Shown piece by piece: positions 2,980 to 18,747 of a stretch of DNA of 31,902 bases. The notes below the pieces were generated by a model, which did no database searches, was not told where the DNA came from, and worked only from the letters and a program-made list of their open reading frames with translations. A program made the position numbers and the translations under genes. Origin of the DNA: an uncultured Anaerolineae bacterium (GTDB lineage Bacteria; Chloroflexota; Anaerolineae; VGOG01); the NCBI GenBank assembly GCA_964400825.1, contig CAYNWI010000001.1, forward strand, positions 1,166 to 33,067, given 5' to 3'. Positions within the stretch are counted from its first letter, which is position 1, and every line of letters starts with the position of its first letter.

Positions 2980-3453
2980 ATGTCGCAGGTAGTCATCCGT
3001 CGGGCAACTCGGAAAGACGTAGGGGGAATCCTACCTCTCTGGAGTGAGATGATGGATCATCACGCTGAGCTGGATGCGCGGTTTCGGCCTGCGCCTGATG
3101 GGGAGGAGCACTGGGCAGAGATCCTCCGCGATTGGCTTAGAGACGATGGGGCTTGCGTCCTGGTCGCTGATGCCGAAGGGCAACTGGTGGGCTACATCAT
3201 CGGTCTGATGCGTGAGAATCCGCCTGTGCTCCTGCCGTCCACCTATGGCCTCGTCTCCGACATCTGCGTGCGCCCGGCCTGGCGCCGGCAGGGCATCGGC
3301 CGCCGCCTCTTCGAGGCCCTGAAGGATTGGTTCAGGGAGAAGGAGCTTTTTACTGTGCAGCTCAACGTGGCCCACTTCAACCCCGTCTCTCAGGCCTTCT
3401 GGCGGGCGGTAGGATGCCAGGATTTCATGGATCGTCTGTGGTTTGAGCTTTAG
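2980..3453 (+). CDS. GNAT family N-acetyltransferase
   Basis: Acetyl-CoA motif A VRPAWRRQGIGRRL; GGAGGT RBS; 157 aa. Confidence 0.9.
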   Translation: MSQVVIRRATRKDVGGILPLWSEMMDHHAELDARFRPAPDGEEHWAEILRDWLRDDGACVLVADAEGQLVGYIIGLMRENPPVLLPSTYGLVSDICVRPAWRRQGIGRRLFEALKDWFREKELFTVQLNVAHFNPVSQAFWRAVGCQDFMDRLWFEL

Positions 3454-7417: not shown

Positions 7418-7901
7418 GAATAAGTGGAGAGGGTTCCTCTTGCCAGTGGTTGCCGTCCTCACCCTGGTGCTTGACCAGATCAGCAAGCGCTTGGTGATGA
7501 CTAACTTTAGCCCGGGCGAGTCCTGGAATCCCGTGGCCGCTCTGGAGCGCTGGGTTAGCCTGACCTACGTGACGAACACGGGAGCGGTCTTTGGACTGTT
7601 TCCTGATTACGGGGGCATATTCATGGTCATCGCCGTGGTGGTGGTAGTGGTCATCGTCGTCTACTACCGCTACTTGCCGGGCAACCAGTGGTTAGTTCAG
7701 GCCAGCCTGGGCTTGCAGTTGGGCGGGGCGCTGGGCAACTTGCTGGATCGTCTGAGCCACGGTTACGTCATAGATTTCATTGACTTCAAGGTCTGGCCCG
7801 TCTTCAACGTGGCCGACAGTTCCGTCTTCGTAGGGGTGGTGATTCTGGCCTATTATCTCTTGCGTCATGGCGAGGATTGGGGATTAGAGATTAGAGATTA
7901 G
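7407..7901 (+). CDS. lspA: Signal peptidase II
   Basis: LDQISK, NTGAVFG, GALGNLLDR, VIDFI, FNVAD; transmembrane stretches. Confidence 0.95.
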   Translation: MLRENKWRGFLLPVVAVLTLVLDQISKRLVMTNFSPGESWNPVAALERWVSLTYVTNTGAVFGLFPDYGGIFMVIAVVVVVVIVVYYRYLPGNQWLVQASLGLQLGGALGNLLDRLSHGYVIDFIDFKVWPVFNVADSSVFVGVVILAYYLLRHGEDWGLEIRD

Positions 7902-9532: not shown

Positions 9533-10582
9533 ATGCACCAAGTATTCTTCAGGGAAGCCGTGCTTCAGGAAGAGCTCAACGGCAAGGCACGCTGCCTGAC
9601 CTGCGAGCGGCGGTGCGAGGTAGCGGAGGGCGGCCTGGGCTGGTGCCGCACGCGGCAAAACGAGGGCGGCACGCTTTATACTCTCATCTACGGCAACGTA
9701 TCGTCCCTCTCCGCCAACCCCATCGAGAAGAAGCCCCTCTATCATTTCTACCCCGGCAGCGTGGCCCTGACGGCCGGCAGTTGGAGCTGCAACTTCAACT
9801 GTCCCTGGTGCCAGAACTGGGACATCTCCAAATCGCCCCCTCGCCCTGGACGCTACGTGTCCCCGGAGGATTTCGTCGCTGAGACGGTGCGCCGTGGCTG
9901 TCAGGGCACCTCCATCAGCTTCAACGAGCCTACCCTCTCCCTGGAATGGTCCCTCGACGTGTTCAGGCTCGCCCGACAGCGGGGCCTCTACAACACCTAC
10001 GTGACCAACGGCTACATGACCCCTGAGGCGCTGGAGTTGCTGATCGAAGCGGGTCTGGATGCCATGAACGTGGACATCAAAGGGGATGCGGCAGCGGTGA
10101 AAAAGCATTGCGGCACCGATGTGGAGAAGGTCTGGCGCAACTGCCAGGAGGCCAAGAAAGCGGGGGTGCACATTGAGGTCACCACCTTGGTGATACCGAC
10201 CATCAACGACGACGAAGGGATTTTGCGGGGCATCGCCCGGCGCATCCGCCAGGAGCTGGGCGCCGACACCCCCTGGCACTGCAGCGGCTACTATCCCGCC
10301 TACAAATTCACTGCCCCGCCCACGCCGTTGCGGACCCTGGAGCGGGCCCACGACATCGGCAGGGGGGAGGGGCTGGACTTCGTCTACCTGGGCAACGTAC
10401 TGGGCCATCGGTACGAGAACACCTATTGTCCGGAGTGTGGGGAGTTGCTGATCCGGCGGCGGGGGTTGGATGTGGCCGAGTACAGGTTGCAGGACAACAG
10501 GTGCTCGCATTGCGGGCGGGCCGTCCCGGTGGTGACGGGCGTTGATGAGTTGAGCTTTGACTTGTCTGCTGCTTTGTGTTAA
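9533..10582 (+). CDS. amrS: AmmeMemoRadiSam system radical SAM enzyme
   Basis: N-terminal CLTCERRC...GWCRTR, ANPIEKKPLYHFYPG, CNFNCPWC, FNEP, TNGY, C-terminal CPEC/CSHC. Confidence 0.9.
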   Translation: MHQVFFREAVLQEELNGKARCLTCERRCEVAEGGLGWCRTRQNEGGTLYTLIYGNVSSLSANPIEKKPLYHFYPGSVALTAGSWSCNFNCPWCQNWDISKSPPRPGRYVSPEDFVAETVRRGCQGTSISFNEPTLSLEWSLDVFRLARQRGLYNTYVTNGYMTPEALELLIEAGLDAMNVDIKGDAAAVKKHCGTDVEKVWRNCQEAKKAGVHIEVTTLVIPTINDDEGILRGIARRIRQELGADTPWHCSGYYPAYKFTAPPTPLRTLERAHDIGRGEGLDFVYLGNVLGHRYENTYCPECGELLIRRRGLDVAEYRLQDNRCSHCGRAVPVVTGVDELSFDLSAALC

Positions 10583-10629: not shown

Positions 10630-10929
10630 ATGGAAAGAATTGCACTGAGAACTCAATTCTCCACCGGAGTTAATTGGGATGAAGTCCGCAAGGTTCTGAG
10701 CAGCGCGCTGCGTAACGAGACTGAGCTGGCCGACGCGCGACGCACTTACTTTGAACGCGCTTGCCATGCTTTTGAACAGCGGTACCAGATATCTTCTGAA
10801 GAGTTTATGCAGCAATTTGAATCCGGCGCGCTGGGTGACGATGCTGACTATTTTGATTGGTATGCGGCCAAACGTGGCTTCGACCTGTGGGAGCGACGCT
10901 TTCGCATCTTGTCAGGAGTCCAGGTTTGA
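10630..10929 (+). CDS. Small antitoxin-like hypothetical protein
   Basis: 99 aa, AAGGAGAGG RBS; FEQRYQISSEEFMQQFESGALGDDADYFDW resembles partners of DUF6516/TumE toxins; coupled to a toxin remnant. Confidence 0.7.
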   Translation: MERIALRTQFSTGVNWDEVRKVLSSALRNETELADARRTYFERACHAFEQRYQISSEEFMQQFESGALGDDADYFDWYAAKRGFDLWERRFRILSGVQV

Positions 10930-11221: not shown

Positions 11222-11782
11222 ATGTCAACTAAAGTTCCAATCTATCAGATCAAGGTCACGCTAGATGACAGCAAGCCGCCTATCTGGCGGCGCATCCTGG
11301 TGCCCAGCGACATCACCCTGGCAAAACTACACCGCATCCTCCAGGTCGTGATGGGATGGTCGGATTACCACCTTCACCAGTTCATCGTCGGAGGGGCCTA
11401 CATTGGTGAGCCTCACCCCGACTATGACGATTACCTGGACATGCACGACGAACGGGACGTGACGCTACGCCAGATCGTGTCCGGCGAGAGGTTCAAGTTC
11501 CGCTACGAGTACGACTTTGGGGATAGTTGGCTGCACCAGGTGCTGGTGGAGAAGGTGTTGCCGCCGCAGCCAGGCCAGCAGTACCCGCTGTGCATCAAGG
11601 GCAAGCGCGCCTGCCCACCGGAGGACGTGGGCGGGGTATGGGGCTACGGCGACTTCTTGGAGGCCATCCAGAACCCCGACCACCCTGAGCACGAGGAGTA
11701 CCTGGAGTGGGTAGGCGGCGAATTCGACCCCGAGGAGTTTGACCTGGACGGGGTCAACGAGGTGTTACGCACGTTGCGATGA
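11222..11782 (+). CDS. Plasmid pRiA4b ORF-3 family protein
   Basis: YQIKVTL...PPIWRRILVP, LHRILQVVMGWSDYHLHQF, YEYDFGDSW, GKRACPPEDVGG. Confidence 0.92.
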   Translation: MSTKVPIYQIKVTLDDSKPPIWRRILVPSDITLAKLHRILQVVMGWSDYHLHQFIVGGAYIGEPHPDYDDYLDMHDERDVTLRQIVSGERFKFRYEYDFGDSWLHQVLVEKVLPPQPGQQYPLCIKGKRACPPEDVGGVWGYGDFLEAIQNPDHPEHEEYLEWVGGEFDPEEFDLDGVNEVLRTLR

Positions 11783-13262: not shown

Positions 13263-13277
13263 CGAGGTATAGTGCCC

Positions 13278-13961
13278 ATGAGAATCCTGGTGATTGACGA
13301 GGACGAAGAATTCTCCAAAAGCCTCCGCTATTCTCTGCAGCGGGAAGGGCATCCCGTCTTCGTTGCCCTCGATAGCTCTTCCATCCCAACCCTGGTCTGG
13401 AAACACAAGCCTGACTTGATCATCCTCGACAAAGACCTGCTGGAGATTGACGGTCTTCGCCCTTTCGCTTCCTTGCAGGAGGACGTTGACATGCCGCTCA
13501 TACTTCTCGTTGCTCACGTTAAGGAGGAGGGGCGAAGAGAAGAGGAGTTGTCAGGGGAGCGTATCAGAGCCTTCGGGCTAAAGCATCTTCGTCGTGCGGA
13601 GGCGATCCTGCGACGGTTGCGTAGGCTCTTCGAGGAAGAGAGGACTATCCTGGAGATAGGCCAGTTGACTATTGACTTTGAGAAGAAACGAGTCACTTTC
13701 TACGATAAGCCCTTGTCTTTAACCCCCATCCAATTCCATCTACTGAGCTCTTTGGCCCTCGATGCCGGCCGAGTGATGGGCTATCGGGAACTCCTGGAGA
13801 ACGTGTGGGGTTACAAAGGGGAGGACAGCGAGGCGCGGGAACTGCTCAAGGTCCACATCAACCGCATGAGGCAGAAGATGAAAGCGATAGCCGGGGGGGG
13901 AGAGAGTTATATCCAATCGGTGCGGGGCTTTGGCTATAGGTTGTCTCCCCCAGACGAATAA
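13278..13961 (+). CDS. OmpR/PhoB-family response regulator, atypical receiver
   Basis: MRILVIDED...PDLIILD receiver start; wHTH with LTPIQFHLL, LLENVWG, VHINRMRQK, IQSVRGFGYRL. Confidence 0.88.
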   Translation: MRILVIDEDEEFSKSLRYSLQREGHPVFVALDSSSIPTLVWKHKPDLIILDKDLLEIDGLRPFASLQEDVDMPLILLVAHVKEEGRREEELSGERIRAFGLKHLRRAEAILRRLRRLFEEERTILEIGQLTIDFEKKRVTFYDKPLSLTPIQFHLLSSLALDAGRVMGYRELLENVWGYKGEDSEARELLKVHINRMRQKMKAIAGGGESYIQSVRGFGYRLSPPDE

Positions 13962-13981: not shown

Positions 13982-14030
13982 AACAGGGAATCTCTCGGGC
14001 AATGAGAGATCCCCTGTTTGCGTTCTTTTA
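13982..14030 (+). terminator. Probable terminator hairpin after the regulator
   Basis: AACAGGGAATCTCTC/GAGAGATCCCCTGTT (14/15 paired), then a T-rich tract. Confidence 0.6.
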
Positions 14031-14114
14031 CCGATCCTTAACCAAAGTGTAACCGTTTTCTCACCAAAGATTAACTGACTTGTTACTGACATCCTGGCGA
14101 ATTTAGGTTATAAT
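14027..14114 (+). promoter_or_regulatory. Promoter with six 11-bp-phased direct repeats (OmpR/PhoB-type operator array)
   Basis: TTTACC 14027, TTAACC 14038, GTAACC 14049, CTCACC 14060, TTAACT 14071, GTTACT 14082; CTGACA (14086-14091), 17 nt, TATAAT (14109-14114). Confidence 0.75.
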
Positions 14115-14149
14115 TGATGACAATCATGTTTGAGGAAGGAGGTATTAAA

Positions 14150-14335
14150 ATGGCCAAGTGCCCTGAATGCGGAAACCCAATCGAGGTGGGCAAAAGTGTG
14201 AAGCTGGGAGCGAACATCGAATGCCCAGAATGTGGCACGGTGCTGGAAGTCATCAGCCTAAGCCCCCCCGATCTGGACTACGCTCTTGGAGACGAGGACT
14301 GGGAAGATTGGGAGGAAGAAGAAGAAGAGGCATAA
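14150..14335 (+). CDS. LysW-like zinc-ribbon small protein with acidic tail
   Basis: CPECG...CPECG...LEVISLSPPDLD as in LysW; AAGGAGG RBS; ends DEDWEDWEEEEEEA rather than EDWGE. Confidence 0.85.
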   Translation: MAKCPECGNPIEVGKSVKLGANIECPECGTVLEVISLSPPDLDYALGDEDWEDWEEEEEEA

Positions 14336-14383
14336 CTTCCTCCGCCAGCAGGACATCCCATTCCAAAAGCACACGCGAAACAG

Positions 14384-14412
14384 AGCCCTAACCTGCTGGA
14401 CAGGTTAGGGCT
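14384..14412. repeat. 12-bp perfect inverted repeat
   Basis: AGCCCTAACCTG-CTGGA-CAGGTTAGGGCT. Confidence 0.8.
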
Positions 14413-14478
14413 TACCTCTCCCTACCCATCACAAGACCGTCAGGTCAGGCGAGAGGCGATTTAAGATCACCAGGACCG

Positions 14479-14627
14479 TTGTCAACGGCTTTTTGCCCGA
14501 AATACGTCGCCAGAATTGTCTTGGACGACCAGAACAAGAAGAAGTTGTAAAAATCACCAGCCTCCCCCTCGGTCTGGACTATACTGCCGAGAGCTGGAGT
14601 GAGGACTGGGAGAAAGAGGAGTACTGA
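14479..14627 (+). pseudogene. Decayed second LysW-like copy
   Basis: TTG 14479 frame: MSTAFCPKYVARIVLDD; other frame ending TGA 14625-14627: EEVVKITSLPLGLDYTAESWSEDWEKEEY, which parallels EVISLSPPDLDYALGDEDWEDWEEEEE. Confidence 0.6.
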
Positions 14628-14629
14628 AA

Positions 14630-15976
14630 ATGGATTCTGAAGAACCTCTTGGAGATAAGCCTCCCCCCCGTAGCCCAAATCGTCCTCCGATTTGGAAAAG
14701 CGTGGGCGAGGCGCAGTGGAATGATTGGCGGTGGCAGCTTACCCATCGCCTCAGCACAGCCGAAGCATTGGCCCAGGTTATCCACCTCACACCCGAAGAA
14801 GAGGCGGCGCTAGCTGCCCCAGGCCACTTTCGGGTTGATATCACCCCCTATTTTGCCAGCCTGATGGACCCCACCGACCCAACCTGCCCCATCCGTCGTC
14901 AGGTCGTCCCGACGGCCCATGAACTGGAACCCTTCGACCCAGCCACGGCCGACTCGTTGAACGAAGACCGCCACTCCCCCGTGCCAGGGCTGGTCCACCG
15001 CTATCCCGATCGGGTGCTGATGCTGGTCACCACCCAGTGCGCCAGCTACTGCCGCTTCTGTACCCGCAGCCGGGTGGTGGGCGACCCCACGGTCCAGTTC
15101 AGCCGCACCGATTACGATCAGCAGCTCGACTACATCGCCCGCACGCCGCAGGTGCGGGACGTGCTCCTCTCAGGGGGCGATCCTCTGACGCTGCCCCCCA
15201 GGGTACTGGAGGGTTTGCTCAGTAGCCTGCGGGCCATCCCACACGTGGAGGTCATTCGTATCGGTACCCGCGTGCCTGTCTTTCTGCCCATGCGGATTAA
15301 CGAAGAACTGACGGCCATGTTGCGGCAGTTCCACCCCCTGTGGATGAACATCCACTTCAATCACCCTAAGGAAATCACACCAGAGGTGCGCCAGGCCTGC
15401 GAGATGCTGGCCGACGCCGGCATCCCCTTGGGGTCGCAGACGGTGCTCCTGGCCGGGATCAACGACTGTCCCAACGTCATCAAGGCCCTGGTGCACGAGC
15501 TGGTCAAGATCCGCGTCCGACCCTACTATCTCTACCAGTGCGACCCGGTGCACGGCACCAGCCACCTCCGCACCCCGGTAGCCAAGGGGATCGAGATCAT
15601 CGAAGCCCTGCGGGGCCACACCAGCGGCTTCTGCATCCCCACCTACGTCATCGACGCGCCAGGTGGTGGGGGCAAAGTGCCTATCATGCCCCAGTACCTC
15701 ATCAGCCAATCGGACACACGGGTGGCGGTGCGCAACTTCGAGGGCTTCGTCAGCACCTACCCCCAGCCCACGGACTACCAGCCCCACAACCCGGCCCTTT
15801 GCGCCTATTGTCAAACGGCGCGGCCAGAGCCGGGTCAGGAAGGAGTGGAGGGGCTGCTGGCTGGTCAGGCCACGACCATCGCCCCTGAGGGCTTCGATAG
15901 GGTGCACCAGCGCCAGACCCGCATCGCCTGGCAGTCAGTCTGGCAAGTGCCGACAGTAGTCAAGGAAGTGGTCTGA
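14630..15976 (+). CDS. kamA: KamA-family radical SAM aminomutase (lysine 2,3-aminomutase-like)
   Basis: WNDWRWQL, LVHRYPDRVL, CASYCRFC, LLSGGDPL, HFNHPKE, YLYQCD, YVIDAPGGGGK (PLP lysine). Confidence 0.95.
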   Translation: MDSEEPLGDKPPPRSPNRPPIWKSVGEAQWNDWRWQLTHRLSTAEALAQVIHLTPEEEAALAAPGHFRVDITPYFASLMDPTDPTCPIRRQVVPTAHELEPFDPATADSLNEDRHSPVPGLVHRYPDRVLMLVTTQCASYCRFCTRSRVVGDPTVQFSRTDYDQQLDYIARTPQVRDVLLSGGDPLTLPPRVLEGLLSSLRAIPHVEVIRIGTRVPVFLPMRINEELTAMLRQFHPLWMNIHFNHPKEITPEVRQACEMLADAGIPLGSQTVLLAGINDCPNVIKALVHELVKIRVRPYYLYQCDPVHGTSHLRTPVAKGIEIIEALRGHTSGFCIPTYVIDAPGGGGKVPIMPQYLISQSDTRVAVRNFEGFVSTYPQPTDYQPHNPALCAYCQTARPEPGQEGVEGLLAGQATTIAPEGFDRVHQRQTRIAWQSVWQVPTVVKEVV

Positions 15977-17091
15977 TGCCCAGTTTCAGAGTTGCTCTGC
16001 TGTATAACCTGAAGCACAACGCCCCCCAGGAGCCCGGTGCTCCGCCCGACGCCCTGGCCGAGTATGACTCCATAGAGACTGTCCAGGCCCTTGAGGATGC
16101 TCTGCGGGCCGGTGGTCACCAGGTGATCCCTTTGGAAGGGGACAAGACGCTGTTGGACACCATTCGCCAAGCCGATCCCGACATCGCCTTCAACATCTGC
16201 GAGGGGCATCGGGGTGATGCCCGGGAATCTCAGGTGCCGGCCCTGTTGGAGATGCTGGACATCCCCTACACGGGTTCCAAAATCCTGGCTCAGGCTATCT
16301 CTCTGGACAAGGCCATAGCCAAGCGGGTGTGGCGGGACTGCGGCCTGCCCACTGCTCCTTTCCAGGTCTTCTACCACGAGCACCAGCCACTGGATGAGCA
16401 ACTGGCCTTTCCCCTGTTTGTCAAGCCGGCGCGTGAGGGCTCAGGGATGGGGATCAACGGCCACTCCGTCGTCCACGATGAGGCCGATCTGCGAGAGCAA
16501 GTGCGTTGGGTGCTCCAAACCTACCGCCAGCCGGCCCTGGTGGAAGCGCATCTACCAGGGCGGGAGTTCACTGTGGGCCTCATTGGCAACGTCATGGCAC
16601 CGGGGGAGCGGCCGTGGAAGGGCACCCTGACCGACCGAGAGTGCCGGCTGTACGACGAACGGGGCTTCCATCTTTTTCCGGTGTTGGAGATCGACTCCCA
16701 GGCGAGTGTCGGTCAGGGACTGTACAACGCAGAAGCCAAGTCCTACCACCCTGGTGAGGAAGGGGCGCCCCTCTACCTTTGCCCGGCGGACATTCCCTCG
16801 GACCTGGAGGCCGAACTGAAGCGTTTGGCCGTAGCCGCCTTTGAAGTCATTGGGGCCCTGGACGTGGCCCGGGTGGACTTCCGGCTGGGTGCTGGCGGGC
16901 AACCTTACCTCATAGAAATCAACACCCTGCCAGGCCTGAACCCGACGGTGAGCGACCTGTGCATCGTGGCCCGCGCCGAGGGGATGCATTACCCAGACCT
17001 GATCAACGAGATCCTGAACCTGGCGATAGATCGCTACGGATTGGGGTGGGATATGGGCTTCTCTTCCCGCTTCCGCCGGCCATTCCTATAG
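15976..17091 (+). CDS. Ddl-like ATP-grasp ligase 1
   Basis: FNICEG, PYTGS, LDKAIAK, FVKPAREGSGMGI, GREFTVG, ARVDFR, EINTLPGL; TGATG coupling to kamA. Confidence 0.9.
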   Translation: MPSFRVALLYNLKHNAPQEPGAPPDALAEYDSIETVQALEDALRAGGHQVIPLEGDKTLLDTIRQADPDIAFNICEGHRGDARESQVPALLEMLDIPYTGSKILAQAISLDKAIAKRVWRDCGLPTAPFQVFYHEHQPLDEQLAFPLFVKPAREGSGMGINGHSVVHDEADLREQVRWVLQTYRQPALVEAHLPGREFTVGLIGNVMAPGERPWKGTLTDRECRLYDERGFHLFPVLEIDSQASVGQGLYNAEAKSYHPGEEGAPLYLCPADIPSDLEAELKRLAVAAFEVIGALDVARVDFRLGAGGQPYLIEINTLPGLNPTVSDLCIVARAEGMHYPDLINEILNLAIDRYGLGWDMGFSSRFRRPFL

Positions 17092-17129: not shown

Positions 17130-18314
17130 ATGCATTCAGACGAAAAGCCTCCTGGGGTGGTTGTGTTGTACAACCACAGCCAAGGGCTGGTGAAGGGCGA
17201 GCCTCGCGACCTGCTGGCGGAACAGGGGGTCATCGCCTGCGCCCATGCCATAGCGGAAGCGCTCCACATGGCCGGTCGGCGGGTGGAGTTGGTGCCCATC
17301 TACAGCGATGTAGAGTTGGCGCTGGCATCGTATCCTCCTCTGGACTGGGTGGTTTTCAACCTGGGGGAAGGGCTGGCGGGGCGACTCTTCGAGGAAGTAC
17401 GCATTGCCTGGGCTTTGGAGGCCATGGGCTACGCCTTTACCGGCTCGGGAGGGGATGCCATCCTCCGCTCGACCCATAAGGAACAGGCAAAGACGCTGCT
17501 GGCCGAGGCGGGCGTGCCAACTCCACCCGGGCGGATCTTTTACGACCCGGGGGAAGTGGAGGAGCACAGTGTCGCTACGCTCCCCTTCCCTCTCATAGTC
17601 AAGCCGGTAGCTGAGGACGCCAGTCTCGGAGTCAGCACAGACGCTGTGGTACACACCCCAGCAGCCTTGCAAGCGCGAGTGGCCTACGTGGTAGAGCGTT
17701 ACCGGCAGGGAGCGCTGGCGGAGCAGTTCATTGGCGGACGGGAGTTCAACATCTCCTTATGGGGCCATCTGCCACAAGTTCTGCCCCTGGCGGAGATAGA
17801 CTTCAGCGCCTTTGACGATCCTTTCCAGCGCATCGTTTCCTTTGCTGCGAAGTGGGAAGAGGACTCTTTTGCCTACAACCATACCCCTGTGGTCTGCCCG
17901 GCTAACGTGGCGTCGGTTCTCCGTGACCGCATTATTGCCACTGCCCAGCGGGCCTGGAGAGCCATCGGCTGCCGGGGCTACGCACGGGTCGACATGCGTG
18001 TGGCCGCCGATGACACGCCCTGCGTCGTGGAGGTTAACTGCAATCCCGACATCTCGCCGGATGCCGGCTTCTTCCGCGCCGCTCGTGCCGCCGGGTACAA
18101 CTACGTGGGGATGGTCACTCATATTCTGAACCTTGCCTTAAGACGGCGCAACACCTGTGATTACGAAAGCGAAAGAGCAAGATGGCTCACAAGTTCTGCA
18201 TCTAACCGCCGCCGCTGGCGTTTTCAAGCCAGACGAAGTGGCCTGCGTCCAGGAGTTATGGGACGCTTACCTGCGACAGGGCGAAGCCAGTGGCTACGTT
18301 TTTTTGGTTTATAA
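17130..18314 (+). CDS. Ddl-like ATP-grasp ligase 2 (homology ends near 18150)
   Basis: FNLGEG, FTGSG, VKPVAEDASLGV, GREFNIS, GYARVDMR, EVNCNPD; AAGGAGGTGA RBS before ATG 17130. Confidence 0.88.
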   Translation: MHSDEKPPGVVVLYNHSQGLVKGEPRDLLAEQGVIACAHAIAEALHMAGRRVELVPIYSDVELALASYPPLDWVVFNLGEGLAGRLFEEVRIAWALEAMGYAFTGSGGDAILRSTHKEQAKTLLAEAGVPTPPGRIFYDPGEVEEHSVATLPFPLIVKPVAEDASLGVSTDAVVHTPAALQARVAYVVERYRQGALAEQFIGGREFNISLWGHLPQVLPLAEIDFSAFDDPFQRIVSFAAKWEEDSFAYNHTPVVCPANVASVLRDRIIATAQRAWRAIGCRGYARVDMRVAADDTPCVVEVNCNPDISPDAGFFRAARAAGYNYVGMVTHILNLALRRRNTCDYESERARWLTSSASNRRRWRFQARRSGLRPGVMGRLPATGRSQWLRFFGL

Positions 18315-18747
18315 GAACGGGGACCGCCTCCTGGGCTACGCCTGCTTCGGGCCTCACACGCTGACCGAGGGGACCTTCGACCTGTACTGGATTGCCGTAG
18401 ACCCGGAGGCGCAGGGGCAGGGCATCGGCCACGCCCTGCTGGCGCGGGTGGAAGAGGAGGTGCAGGCCCGAGGAGGCCGGCTGCTGCTGGTAGAGACATC
18501 AGGCACCGCGGCGTATGCCCCAGCTTGTCGCTTGTATGAATCCTGTGGCTACCATTACGAAGCGGCAGTCCACGATTTTTATGCTCCTGGCGATGACCTG
18601 ATCCTCTACACCAAACCCCTCACGCCCACACCGATGATGAAAACGCCATGTTATCCCTTGATGACGCCCAACGGCACGACCCTGGCCACCTTGCGAGCGA
18701 CTCCCGTCGAGTGTACTACGTTGACCACTCGGTCTACATCCTTGTAG
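18157..18747 (+). CDS. GNAT family N-acetyltransferase (homology ends near 18620)
   Basis: GYACFGP, DLYWIAVDPEAQGQGIGHALL, VETSG...Y, DFYAPGDD. Confidence 0.88.
   Translation: MITKAKEQDGSQVLHLTAAAGVFKPDEVACVQELWDAYLRQGEASGYVFLVYKNGDRLLGYACFGPHTLTEGTFDLYWIAVDPEAQGQGIGHALLARVEEEVQARGGRLLLVETSGTAAYAPACRLYESCGYHYEAAVHDFYAPGDDLILYTKPLTPTPMMKTPCYPLMTPNGTTLATLRATPVECTTLTTRSTSL

Follow-up and report, generated by a model that had tools for sequence, protein, structure and literature searches.

A LysW-like zinc-ribbon protein encoded with a lysine 2,3-aminomutase and Ddl-type ATP-grasp ligases in Anaerolineae: a possible non-canonical carrier or acceptor for beta-lysine

Introduction

We analyzed a stretch of 31,902 nucleotides from an uncultured Anaerolineae bacterium of the Chloroflexota (GenBank assembly GCA_964400825.1, contig CAYNWI010000001.1, positions 1,166 to 33,067 of the forward strand), referred to below as the window, focusing on a small gene for a LysW-like zinc-ribbon protein and on the genes that accompany it. 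To our knowledge, LysW-type carriers, whether from the synthesis of lysine or arginine or from the few clusters of actinobacteria and Serratia that have them, are known only together with RimK-type LysX ligases and with the fixed chemistry of a terminal Glu in an EDWGE motif. The small gene of the window was found to lie between a response regulator gene and a cassette for a lysine 2,3-aminomutase (KamA), two Ddl-type ATP-grasp ligases (AG1 and AG2) and a GNAT N-acetyltransferase. An initial annotation, made from the sequence alone, had placed it outside any lys or arg operon and had proposed a distinct carrier or modification substrate, with internal Glu acceptors or with a terminal Ala to be removed.

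Identification of the LysW-like gene

The gene occupies positions 14150..14335 of the plus strand (stop codon included). Its 61-residue product (MAKCPECGNPIEVGKSVKLGANIECPECGTVLEVISLSPPDLDYALGDEDWEDWEEEEEEA) carries two CxxC pairs, a LEVISLSP core and the C-terminal end EDWEDWEEEEEEA, that is, six Glu followed by Ala, exactly as first described, and has an isoelectric point (pI) of 4.05 and a net charge of -15.5. A Shine-Dalgarno sequence, AGGAGG, lies 7 nt 5' of the open reading frame (ORF). A longer ORF with a TTG start at 14114 was rejected as a conserved protein: its MFEEGGIK extension represents the translated Shine-Dalgarno region, since the string EKGGVKM precedes every homologue.

Hidden Markov model searches, which the initial annotation had suggested as a check, gave a match to Pfam PF21344 (Zn_ribbon_LysW) at 48.4 bits against a gathering threshold of 27 (E 7e-13), placing the protein among the LysW-type two-CxxC ribbons, and the top matches to solved structures were LysW chains from Thermococcus (5k2m_E, E 3.5e-9) and Thermus (3wwl, 8.5e-6). 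Both LysW equivalog cut-offs were missed, however (TIGR01206, 41.0 vs 53.2; NF041070, 36.4 vs 75). Of four characters by which membership in LysW can be judged, the window protein thus shows the ribbon and lacks the equivalog score, the EDWGE end and the lys gene set, and the view that it is a LysW homologue but not a canonical one, with no lys or arg enzymes nearby, was borne out.

A total of 12 close homologues were found, sharing the core EVISLxPLDLDYA and acidic Trp-containing tails, with A, V, I, F, Y, D or E as last residue. All close relatives are metagenome-assembled genomes (MAGs) of Anaerolineae/Chloroflexota, and the DNA sequencing runs that match the window are mostly salt-marsh metagenomes. 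Comparison with seven orthologues gave dN/dS values of 0.25-0.42, which indicates purifying selection, and RNA contigs 100% identical to positions 14143-14378 were present in all four lake-water metatranscriptomes. Homologues, purifying selection and RNA contigs together establish that the gene is real. It is an expressed offshoot of LysW without the defining end of LysW, that is, a LysW-fold homologue and not LysW. One further metatranscriptome record (run X26, record 9) is a contig of 582 nt and depth 85, which matches positions 14228-14304 with 6 differences and then continues into the tail GAGGAAGAGGAAGAGGAC; it appears to be a highly expressed LysW-like gene (paralogue) of a related organism.

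The downstream cassette

The cassette lies on the strand of the LysW-like gene and begins 295 nt 3' of its ORF with KamA at 14630..15976. This radical S-adenosylmethionine and pyridoxal phosphate (PLP) enzyme, of the KamA/AblA type, scored 539.2 against the TIGR03820 cut-off of 525.4 and aligned with 2A5H at E 1.2e-153; the lysine-binding residues Asp293 and Asp330 and the PLP-binding Lys337 are all kept. By these residues it is a lysine-specific 2,3-aminomutase, so that beta-lysine would be its product.

AG1 (15976..17091, plus strand; PF07478, 113 bits) is a Ddl-type ATP-grasp ligase, though not a true Ddl: the NCBIfam Ddl cut-off of 243 is reached neither by AG1 (188.9 with PRK01372, the best model) nor by AG2 (126.3). 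In an alignment with DdlB, the ATP, Mg and catalytic residues are kept in AG1 (Lys144, Ser150, Lys215, Arg255, Asp257, Glu270, Asn272 and Ser281), whereas Tyr216 is changed to Ser and Leu282 to an invariant Asp; the N-terminal region with Glu15 of DdlB could not be aligned. The Asp at the Leu282 position, which belongs to the second-substrate site, would suit a cationic nucleophile. AG1 was also considered as the true Ddl of the cell, which is unlikely: it falls below the Ddl cut-offs, and it can hardly be a housekeeping enzyme because it is present or absent among close relatives. An AlphaFold model of AG1 built with 46 homologues (mean predicted local distance difference test score 50.5, predicted template modelling score 0.46) was too poor for surface-charge analysis or a fold search.

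AG2 (17130..18314, plus strand) is a second ATP-grasp protein, similar to Ddl and L-amino-acid ligases (PF07478, 91 bits; ATP-grasp_3, 31 bits). It is 31% identical to AG1, keeps the ATP-grasp catalytic set, and matches Ddl structures in the PDB at up to E 1e-20 and 3vot at 4e-6; its start at 17130 was placed by comparison with homologues. The last gene, at 18157..18747 (plus strand; Acetyltransf_1, 57 bits), encodes a GNAT N-acetyltransferase that is not AblB (TIGR03827, 21.4 vs a cut-off of 205.1), the nearest named model being RimI (48.7 vs 86.4). The AG2 frame overlaps the GNAT gene by 158 nt (18157-18314) and thereby gains a very basic extension of 50 residues; the overlap is alike in L005 and L010 and is only 4 nt in L001 (L numbers denote loci throughout). 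A known anti-phage defence system was considered too and rejected, as no family among the PADLOC-DB models was matched by the six proteins of the cassette.

Between the LysW-like gene and KamA lies a decayed second LysW-like copy, a pseudogene at 14409..14627 (plus strand) in which CPEC has become CPKY and which contains an in-frame stop and a frameshift; its remaining frame reads ...ITSLPLGLDYTAESWSEDWEKEEY. The second copy is intact at the equivalent position in two related loci (L062, 6291-6644; L001, 934-1116). The start of the pseudogene retains KITRTVV, a remnant of a 103-residue acidic gene of relatives (see below). An ORF of 44 codons at 14493-14627, ending 2 nt before KamA, was considered as a second, zinc-less carrier and rejected as an out-of-frame remnant of the decayed copy.

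Domain scans found no RimK-type ATP-grasp, amino-acid kinase, semialdehyde dehydrogenase, class-III aminotransferase or M20 peptidase in the window, and the RimK-family domain PF08443 was absent from every window protein scanned. The earlier statement that no lysX, Z, Y, J or K genes are nearby is therefore literally true of the window. The gene is not isolated, however, as it heads the KamA-AG1-AG2-GNAT cassette, and the two Ddl-type ATP-grasp genes downstream had been overlooked when the locus was taken to have no ligase.

Regulatory region and transcript ends

Directly upstream, positions 13272..13961 of the plus strand encode an OmpR/PhoB-type response regulator with a receiver and a winged-helix domain (Trans_reg_C, 64.6 bits; Response_reg, 40.6 bits). 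The Response_reg match covers only positions 1-83 of the 111-position model, no histidine kinase gene adjoins the regulator gene in the window, and the protein may be an atypical orphan regulator. A regulator gene immediately precedes the small gene or the cassette both in close relatives (regulator identity 73-89%) and at distant loci (25-36% identity: L066, L067, L069, L070, L087, L120, L136 and L145); it is divergently oriented in L074 and L079. Right after it, at 13983-14017, a hairpin of 14 pairs with one mismatch is followed by a T-rich run. The hairpin is kept in L001, L017 and L062 and is likely the terminator of the regulator gene, separating it from the promoter of the LysW-like gene.

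Six direct repeats of the form [T/G/C]T[T/A/C]AC[C/T][G/A]A (TTAACCGA/TTACTGA type) were read from the sequence at 14027..14089 on the plus strand. They start at 14027, 14038, 14049, 14060, 14071 and 14082, a spacing of exactly 11 bp, and the block is kept in L001, L010-L014, L017 and L062. Since a periodicity of 11 bp is typical of OmpR/PhoB-family sites, the repeats are a putative operator array for the adjacent regulator. They run straight into a sigma-70-type promoter at 14086..14114 (plus strand; -35 CTGACA, 17-nt spacer, -10 TATAAT), which has 11 of 12 consensus positions and is kept in relatives; the 5' end of the RNA contigs at 14143 is compatible with it.

On the 3' side of the ORF, a perfect 13-bp stem-loop (GAGCCCTAACCTG-loop-CAGGTTAGGGCTC) occupies 14383..14413 of the plus strand, in a region with a fold z-score of -3.8. 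The RNA contigs stop at 14371-14378, just 5' of it, and like hairpins follow most LysW-like copies (L001, L002, L005, L009-L014, L016, L017 and L062). There is little covariation because the hairpin sequence is itself conserved. The element is likely an attenuator or an mRNA-stabilising 3' end; no Rfam family matched between 13900 and 14700.

Distribution and gene order of the module

An AG1-alignment scan of metagenome contigs returned 80 loci of more than 535 relatives. KamA-AG1 modules are flanked by LysW-like genes at about 20 diverged metagenomic or MAG loci. Distances of at most 1.5 kb to KamA and/or AG1 were found in the window, L001, L005, L010, L046, L062, L064, L066-L070, L072, L078, L087, L116, L120, L124, L137 and L146-L152, among which AG1 identities range over 50-100%. 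The gene order varies. The LysW-like gene is directly 5' of KamA-AG1(-AG2-GNAT) in L062, L064, L067-L070, L072, L078 and L124, follows AG2 in L066, and is present in two copies ahead of an AG1-KamA pair in L116. AG1 is accompanied by a LysW-like gene without KamA in L087, L120, L137 and a Chloroflexia MAG (L027), the small gene being directly before AG1 in L120 and L137 (gaps of 18-60 nt) and after it in L027. The minimal conserved pair is KamA and AG1: in a 1,961-bp contig (P0109) a single gene call joins the C-terminal domain of KamA to AG1, and one degenerate KamA-N-terminus/AG1 protein occurs among the AG1 homologues.

In the lineage of the window, the synteny consists of the regulator gene, one to four LysW-like genes, the cassette or nothing, and RtcB on the opposite strand. 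The cassette is present in this arrangement in the window and in L001 (without RtcB) and absent from the locus in L002-L004, L009, L011-L013 and L017; several kb separate the LysW-like array from RtcB in L015 and L016, and the contig of L014 ends before that position. The module lies at other genomic sites in L005, L010, L062 and L064; of these, L005 and L062 retain no more than a fragment of the regulator gene. The LysW-like gene and the cassette were thus found together between the regulator gene and RtcB (window), downstream of TreT and an amino-acid permease (L005), and downstream of genes for Nramp, a permease, Usp and two proteins with TrkA domains (L147). The site in L146, after a PRK-family kinase gene and a like permease, is of the L005 type. 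The neighbours at the L005/L146- and L147-type sites suggest an osmotic-stress flavour.

Two loci, L074 (9113-9298) and L079 (9103-9285), carry directly after AG1 a gene for a rubredoxin-type ribbon (PF21349) with the tail EDWDDEEFEDEDFDEYDEEEE; this ribbon, unrelated to LysW, is apparently an analogue of the LysW-like partner. A large, distinct group of AG1 relatives (about 51% identity) is encoded close to ATP synthase genes, in a housekeeping setting that includes no LysW-like gene.

Canonical LysW operons were also found in Anaerolineae (L033 and L048). In the control locus L033, a canonical LysW ending in EEDWGE is followed by LysX, LysY, LysZ, LysJ and LysK, with the domains RimK+LysX_preATP_grasp, Semialdhyde_dh, AA_kinase, Aminotran_3 and Peptidase_M20. 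The phylum therefore contains canonical as well as non-canonical forms, and both tail and context separate them cleanly. The initial annotation had asked whether homologues with the window's kind of tail sit beside lysX or argX or occur in random contexts. It is canonical EEDWGE proteins that occupy the place beside lysX, and the non-canonical ones have recurrent neighbours, namely an OmpR-type regulator and KamA/ATP-grasp genes.

Two further small genes were observed in these loci. The first is a Lys/Pro-rich micro-ORF (MAKKKPKKPGGKPKPKKSPTKPKKTS) with its own Shine-Dalgarno sequence, located after the conserved promoter and ahead of the first LysW-like gene (L002, about 7560-7640; L009; L015; L016; L046, 6440-6478) and absent from the window; a polycation is thus encoded beside the polyanionic tails. 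The second encodes a 103-residue acidic protein without a Pfam family, ending in ...EEVEEWD or ...EEVEEWE (L009, 1760-2071; L002, 9191-9502; L014; frameshifted in L062). It places a LysW-like EEW end on an unrelated protein and, where the cassette is missing, occupies the position that follows the LysW-like array.

Variation of the C-terminal tails

We compiled 34 distinct tails from genes lying no more than 1.5 kb from a cassette gene. The recurrent features of these cassette-linked homologues are the ribbon, a strand of the form LEV(I/V)xLxPxELD(Y/W), and a [D/E]W motif in about half of the tails (18 of 34). The canonical control loci all end in EEDWGE or EEDWGQ. A profile search of 1.84 billion cluster representatives (E<=1e-3) gave 1,595 matches, and among the best 150 of these, 77 were single-domain proteins with acidic non-canonical tails and none was canonical. 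About 58 of the same 150 contain two or three tandem LysW-like ribbons (e.g. P0134, P0137 and P0139-P0141), often joined by linkers rich in Lys and Arg and followed by basic tails; in P0133, all three ribbons have an acidic tail of their own.

Comparison with known systems

The closest known systems are LysW/ArgW with LysX/ArgX of Thermus, Sulfolobus and Thermococcus (3wwl, 5k2m). The homologous two-CxxC ribbon and LEVISL strand, a pI of about 4, a C-terminal extension with an EDW motif and an adjacent ATP-grasp ligase gene are shared. The present proteins differ in having no EDWGE end and no conserved terminal Glu and in falling below the equivalog cut-offs. Their neighbouring ligases are of the Ddl type (PF07478) instead of the RimK type with a LysX pre-ATP-grasp domain; LysZ, LysY, LysJ and LysK are lacking, a lysine 2,3-aminomutase serves as the pathway enzyme, and the genes form multi-copy arrays under an OmpR-type regulator. 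[quoted passage not shown] The module resembles these in having a LysW homologue outside primary lysine synthesis and departs from them in lacking the LysX/Z/Y/J-type set and a conserved C-terminus.

As to beta-lysine, the product of AblA and AblB, N-epsilon-acetyl-beta-lysine, is a compatible solute of methanogens and some bacteria. An AblA-class aminomutase beside a GNAT gene, the saline habitat and the osmotic-stress neighbours at related loci recall that pathway; the overlap is nevertheless AblA only, as the GNAT is not AblB, and the two ATP-grasp ligases and the LysW-like protein imply added amide-bond steps. The osmolyte N-acetylglutaminylglutamine amide (NAGGN) is reportedly made by Ngg, which combines GNAT and ATP-grasp, and AsnO (Sagot et al. 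2010). It offers an analogy in which an ATP-grasp peptide ligase and N-acetylation yield a small amide-linked osmolyte under osmotic control, but with other enzyme families, glutamine in place of beta-lysine and no protein scaffold. RimK acting on S6 and tubulin ligases of the TTL/TTLL type are likewise analogous only, as ATP-grasp enzymes that attach amino acids to the carboxylates of Glu-rich C-terminal tails, which the present tails (...EEEE, ...EEY) resemble; the window proteins scanned have no RimK-family domain, and the amino acid added would be beta-lysine.

Possible function of the LysW-like protein

We propose, tentatively and with doubt still slightly outweighing belief, that the small protein is a non-canonical carrier or acceptor for the ATP-grasp ligation of beta-lysine, probably in osmotic-stress adaptation. 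A LysW-like protein would have been recruited as the partner of a beta-lysine module, most likely as its covalent acceptor or carrier. The OmpR-type regulator would turn on the strong promoter, probably under osmotic or ionic stress, a response suggested because of the regulator and the genomic contexts. The small protein would be made in excess over the enzymes, a step that is partly shown, as the hairpin 3' of its gene would allow no more than a share of the transcripts to continue into the cassette. L-lysine would be converted into beta-lysine by KamA, as identified by sequence. AG1, standing in for the RimK-type LysX of canonical systems, would activate a carboxylate as acyl phosphate and join beta-lysine by an amide bond to the C-terminal region of the small protein, at a site other than the terminal residue. 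AG2 would then form a second amide bond and the GNAT would acetylate the remaining amino group, and the end product would be either a released N-acetylated solute containing beta-lysine or the decorated protein itself. A more specific version is possible but distinctly doubtful, namely a further type of protein-templated amino-acid chemistry that arose independently. Ddl-type ligases, in place of RimK-type ones, would put beta-lysine on internal C-terminal carboxylates of LysW-like proteins, with extension or acetylation to follow. This would provide either a new carrier-borne osmolyte route or a new protein modification amounting to a ribosomally templated, cyanophycin-like poly-Glu/beta-Lys tail, and it would be widespread among saline-sediment Chloroflexota.

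Several lines of evidence point toward a carrier or acceptor. We know of no role of the LysW fold other than that of a covalent carrier loaded by an ATP-grasp ligase, and homology to that fold is indicated by PF21344 and by the matches to LysW structures. The pI of 4.05 is like that of known carrier proteins, which are acidic (PMC11726168). The recurrent neighbourhood in varied gene orders, with the unit at three genomic sites, counts in favour of such a role, as do the analogous replacement of the ribbon in L074 and L079, the minimal KamA-AG1 pair with its joined gene call, the lysine-binding residues of KamA, and the catalytic set and Asp of AG1. RNA of the small gene is carried by all four metatranscriptomes, and the salt-marsh source, together with trehalose synthase, Trk and Usp neighbours in related cassettes, suggests a stress context. 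The earlier idea of a distinct carrier or modification substrate is thus favoured, although not proved, by gene context.

A number of observations weigh against the proposal. Loci without the cassette (L002-L004, L009 and L011-L017) keep one to four intact LysW-like genes under purifying selection. One of them, L011, still has a 31-residue remnant of the GNAT (87% identity), which shows that the cassette was deleted there, and the small gene was retained. At least five well-flanked KamA-AG1 loci have no ribbon gene (L077, L127, L129, L135 and L136), and in Acidobacteriota and other groups there are LysW-like proteins with acid tails whose genes have neither AG1 nor KamA within 10 kb. A LysW-AG1 fusion was not found among the best 120 AG1 homologues. 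No conserved release hydrolase was found either; M20 genes close to the cassette are confined to L005, L010, L062 and L064, which form one sub-lineage, and are seen in neither the window nor the distant loci. AG1 as a whole is acidic, with a pI of 4.9 and a net charge of -19.5, whereas basic docking patches are reported for the enzymes of known carrier proteins (PMC11726168).

The tails are a further difficulty. Only 22 of the 34 cassette-linked tails are net acidic and three end in Glu; no carboxylate is conserved at a fixed position, one recurrent subtype has a neutral tail (VYDxxLFKxDFGVRA...), and some tails are basic. With tails so variable and so few ending in Glu, the terminal Ala and six Glu of the window protein must be regarded as a decoration of its lineage. 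The weight that the initial annotation had laid on them, and on removal of the Ala, does not stand, given also the seven different last residues of the close homologues.

The main alternative is a stand-alone protein, small, acidic, controlled by the regulator and free of covalent chemistry (a stress hydrophilin, a polyanion or counter-ion, or a two-component connector), with which the cassette shares only a regulon and an insertion site. The regulator gene accompanies the small gene more constantly than the cassette does; a promoter, operator-like repeats and a 3' hairpin belong to the small gene itself; its intact arrays, under purifying selection, outlast the cassette, down to the deletion scar in L011; and arrays without the cassette are accompanied by other small charged genes, namely the Lys/Pro-rich micro-ORF and the 103-residue protein ending in EEWD. 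Some acid-tailed members without AG1 adjoin a histidine kinase or response regulator gene, and the tails are hypervariable, low in complexity and aromatic-acidic. This explanation has to be taken seriously but is on balance unlikely. It leaves unexplained why LysW-like gene and cassette move jointly to unrelated genomic sites, why LysW-like genes abut AG1 across lineages at 48-52% AG1 identity, and why an unrelated ribbon with a like tail takes their place in L074 and L079; moreover, the only known function of the fold is that of a ligase-loaded carrier.

Alternatively, the small protein might associate non-covalently with KamA or AG1, as an accessory subunit or specificity factor that docks through its tail, like SSB through its acidic tip, to regulate, activate or stabilise the enzyme. 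This would account for the tight adjacency to both enzymes in several gene orders and for the lack of a conserved acceptor residue. Many tails finish with an acidic run and then one hydrophobic residue (V, I, A, F or Y), and an acidic run with a final hydrophobic residue is typical of docking tips such as that of SSB. We nevertheless consider such a role improbable, since several cassette loci have no such gene, copies persist with no enzymes nearby, and the multi-copy arrays and high transcript levels look more like those of a stoichiometric substrate.

Very improbable is a precursor of a RiPP (a peptide made by the ribosome and modified after translation), with the ribbon as leader or recognition element and the tail as a core on which the two ATP-grasp ligases would introduce cross-links or extensions, with N-acetylation as in microviridin-type graspetides and subsequent release. 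The likeness lies in tandem small, precursor-like genes with hypervariable C-termini 5' of two ATP-grasp ligases and an N-acetyltransferase, and in the hairpin after the small gene, which is common after precursor genes in precursor-peptide operons. Yet the window tail GDEDWEDWEEEEEEA contains neither Ser nor Thr nor Lys as a nucleophile from which omega-ester or omega-amide rings could form, the ligases are of the Ddl type, no protease or exporter is conserved in the cassette, and the presence of the radical enzyme KamA would be unexplained.

That the gene is an ordinary LysW/ArgW with its enzymes encoded elsewhere, or a decaying, functionless paralogue, is hardly credible: the LysW fold is real, Anaerolineae do have canonical operons, and the sister copy in the window is already a pseudogene, but both equivalog cut-offs are missed, the EDWGE end kept by every canonical control locus is lacking, and the gene is expressed and under purifying selection, with a conserved promoter and a consistent non-lys context.

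Other features of the window

The rest of the window is ordinary chromosome, with genes for IleRS, IF-2, NusA, ProRS, TruB, RibF and PurB. A 6S RNA (RF00013, 70.8 bits) was found at 513-691, and a T-box leader (RF00230, 102.5 bits) at 2694-2945, 35 nt 5' of an ORF for 157 residues (2980-3453) and about 700 nt 5' of IleRS. Positions 9533-10582 encode a radical S-adenosylmethionine enzyme of the AmmeMemoRadiSam system, whose C-terminal CxxC...CxxC gave a false ribbon match in a pattern search. A 99-residue protein with a weak TumA-antitoxin match (10630-10929) and a PRiA4_ORF3 (PF07929) protein (11222-11782) were also recorded.

Conclusions

A full-text search of the literature gave no description that links LysW or carrier proteins to aminomutases or beta-lysine, nor one of the KamA/ATP-grasp arrangement. 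The LysW-like gene with KamA and two Ddl-like ligases thus forms an undescribed module in many Chloroflexota, for which the chemistry given here is a proposal. The module is widespread, expressed and consistently organised, and the locus defines a large uncharacterised branch of LysW-like proteins with a free terminus, whose partners are a beta-lysine aminomutase and Ddl-like ligases that currently carry the annotation D-alanine-D-alanine ligase. Should the small protein be loaded, carrier-protein or protein-tail chemistry would reach another family of ligases, thousands of Chloroflexota genes wrongly annotated as Ddl would be accounted for, and a new beta-lysine-based stress metabolite or protein modification would be indicated in abundant uncultured sediment bacteria. 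If it is not, the family would still represent a new class of regulator-controlled, poly-acidic small proteins.

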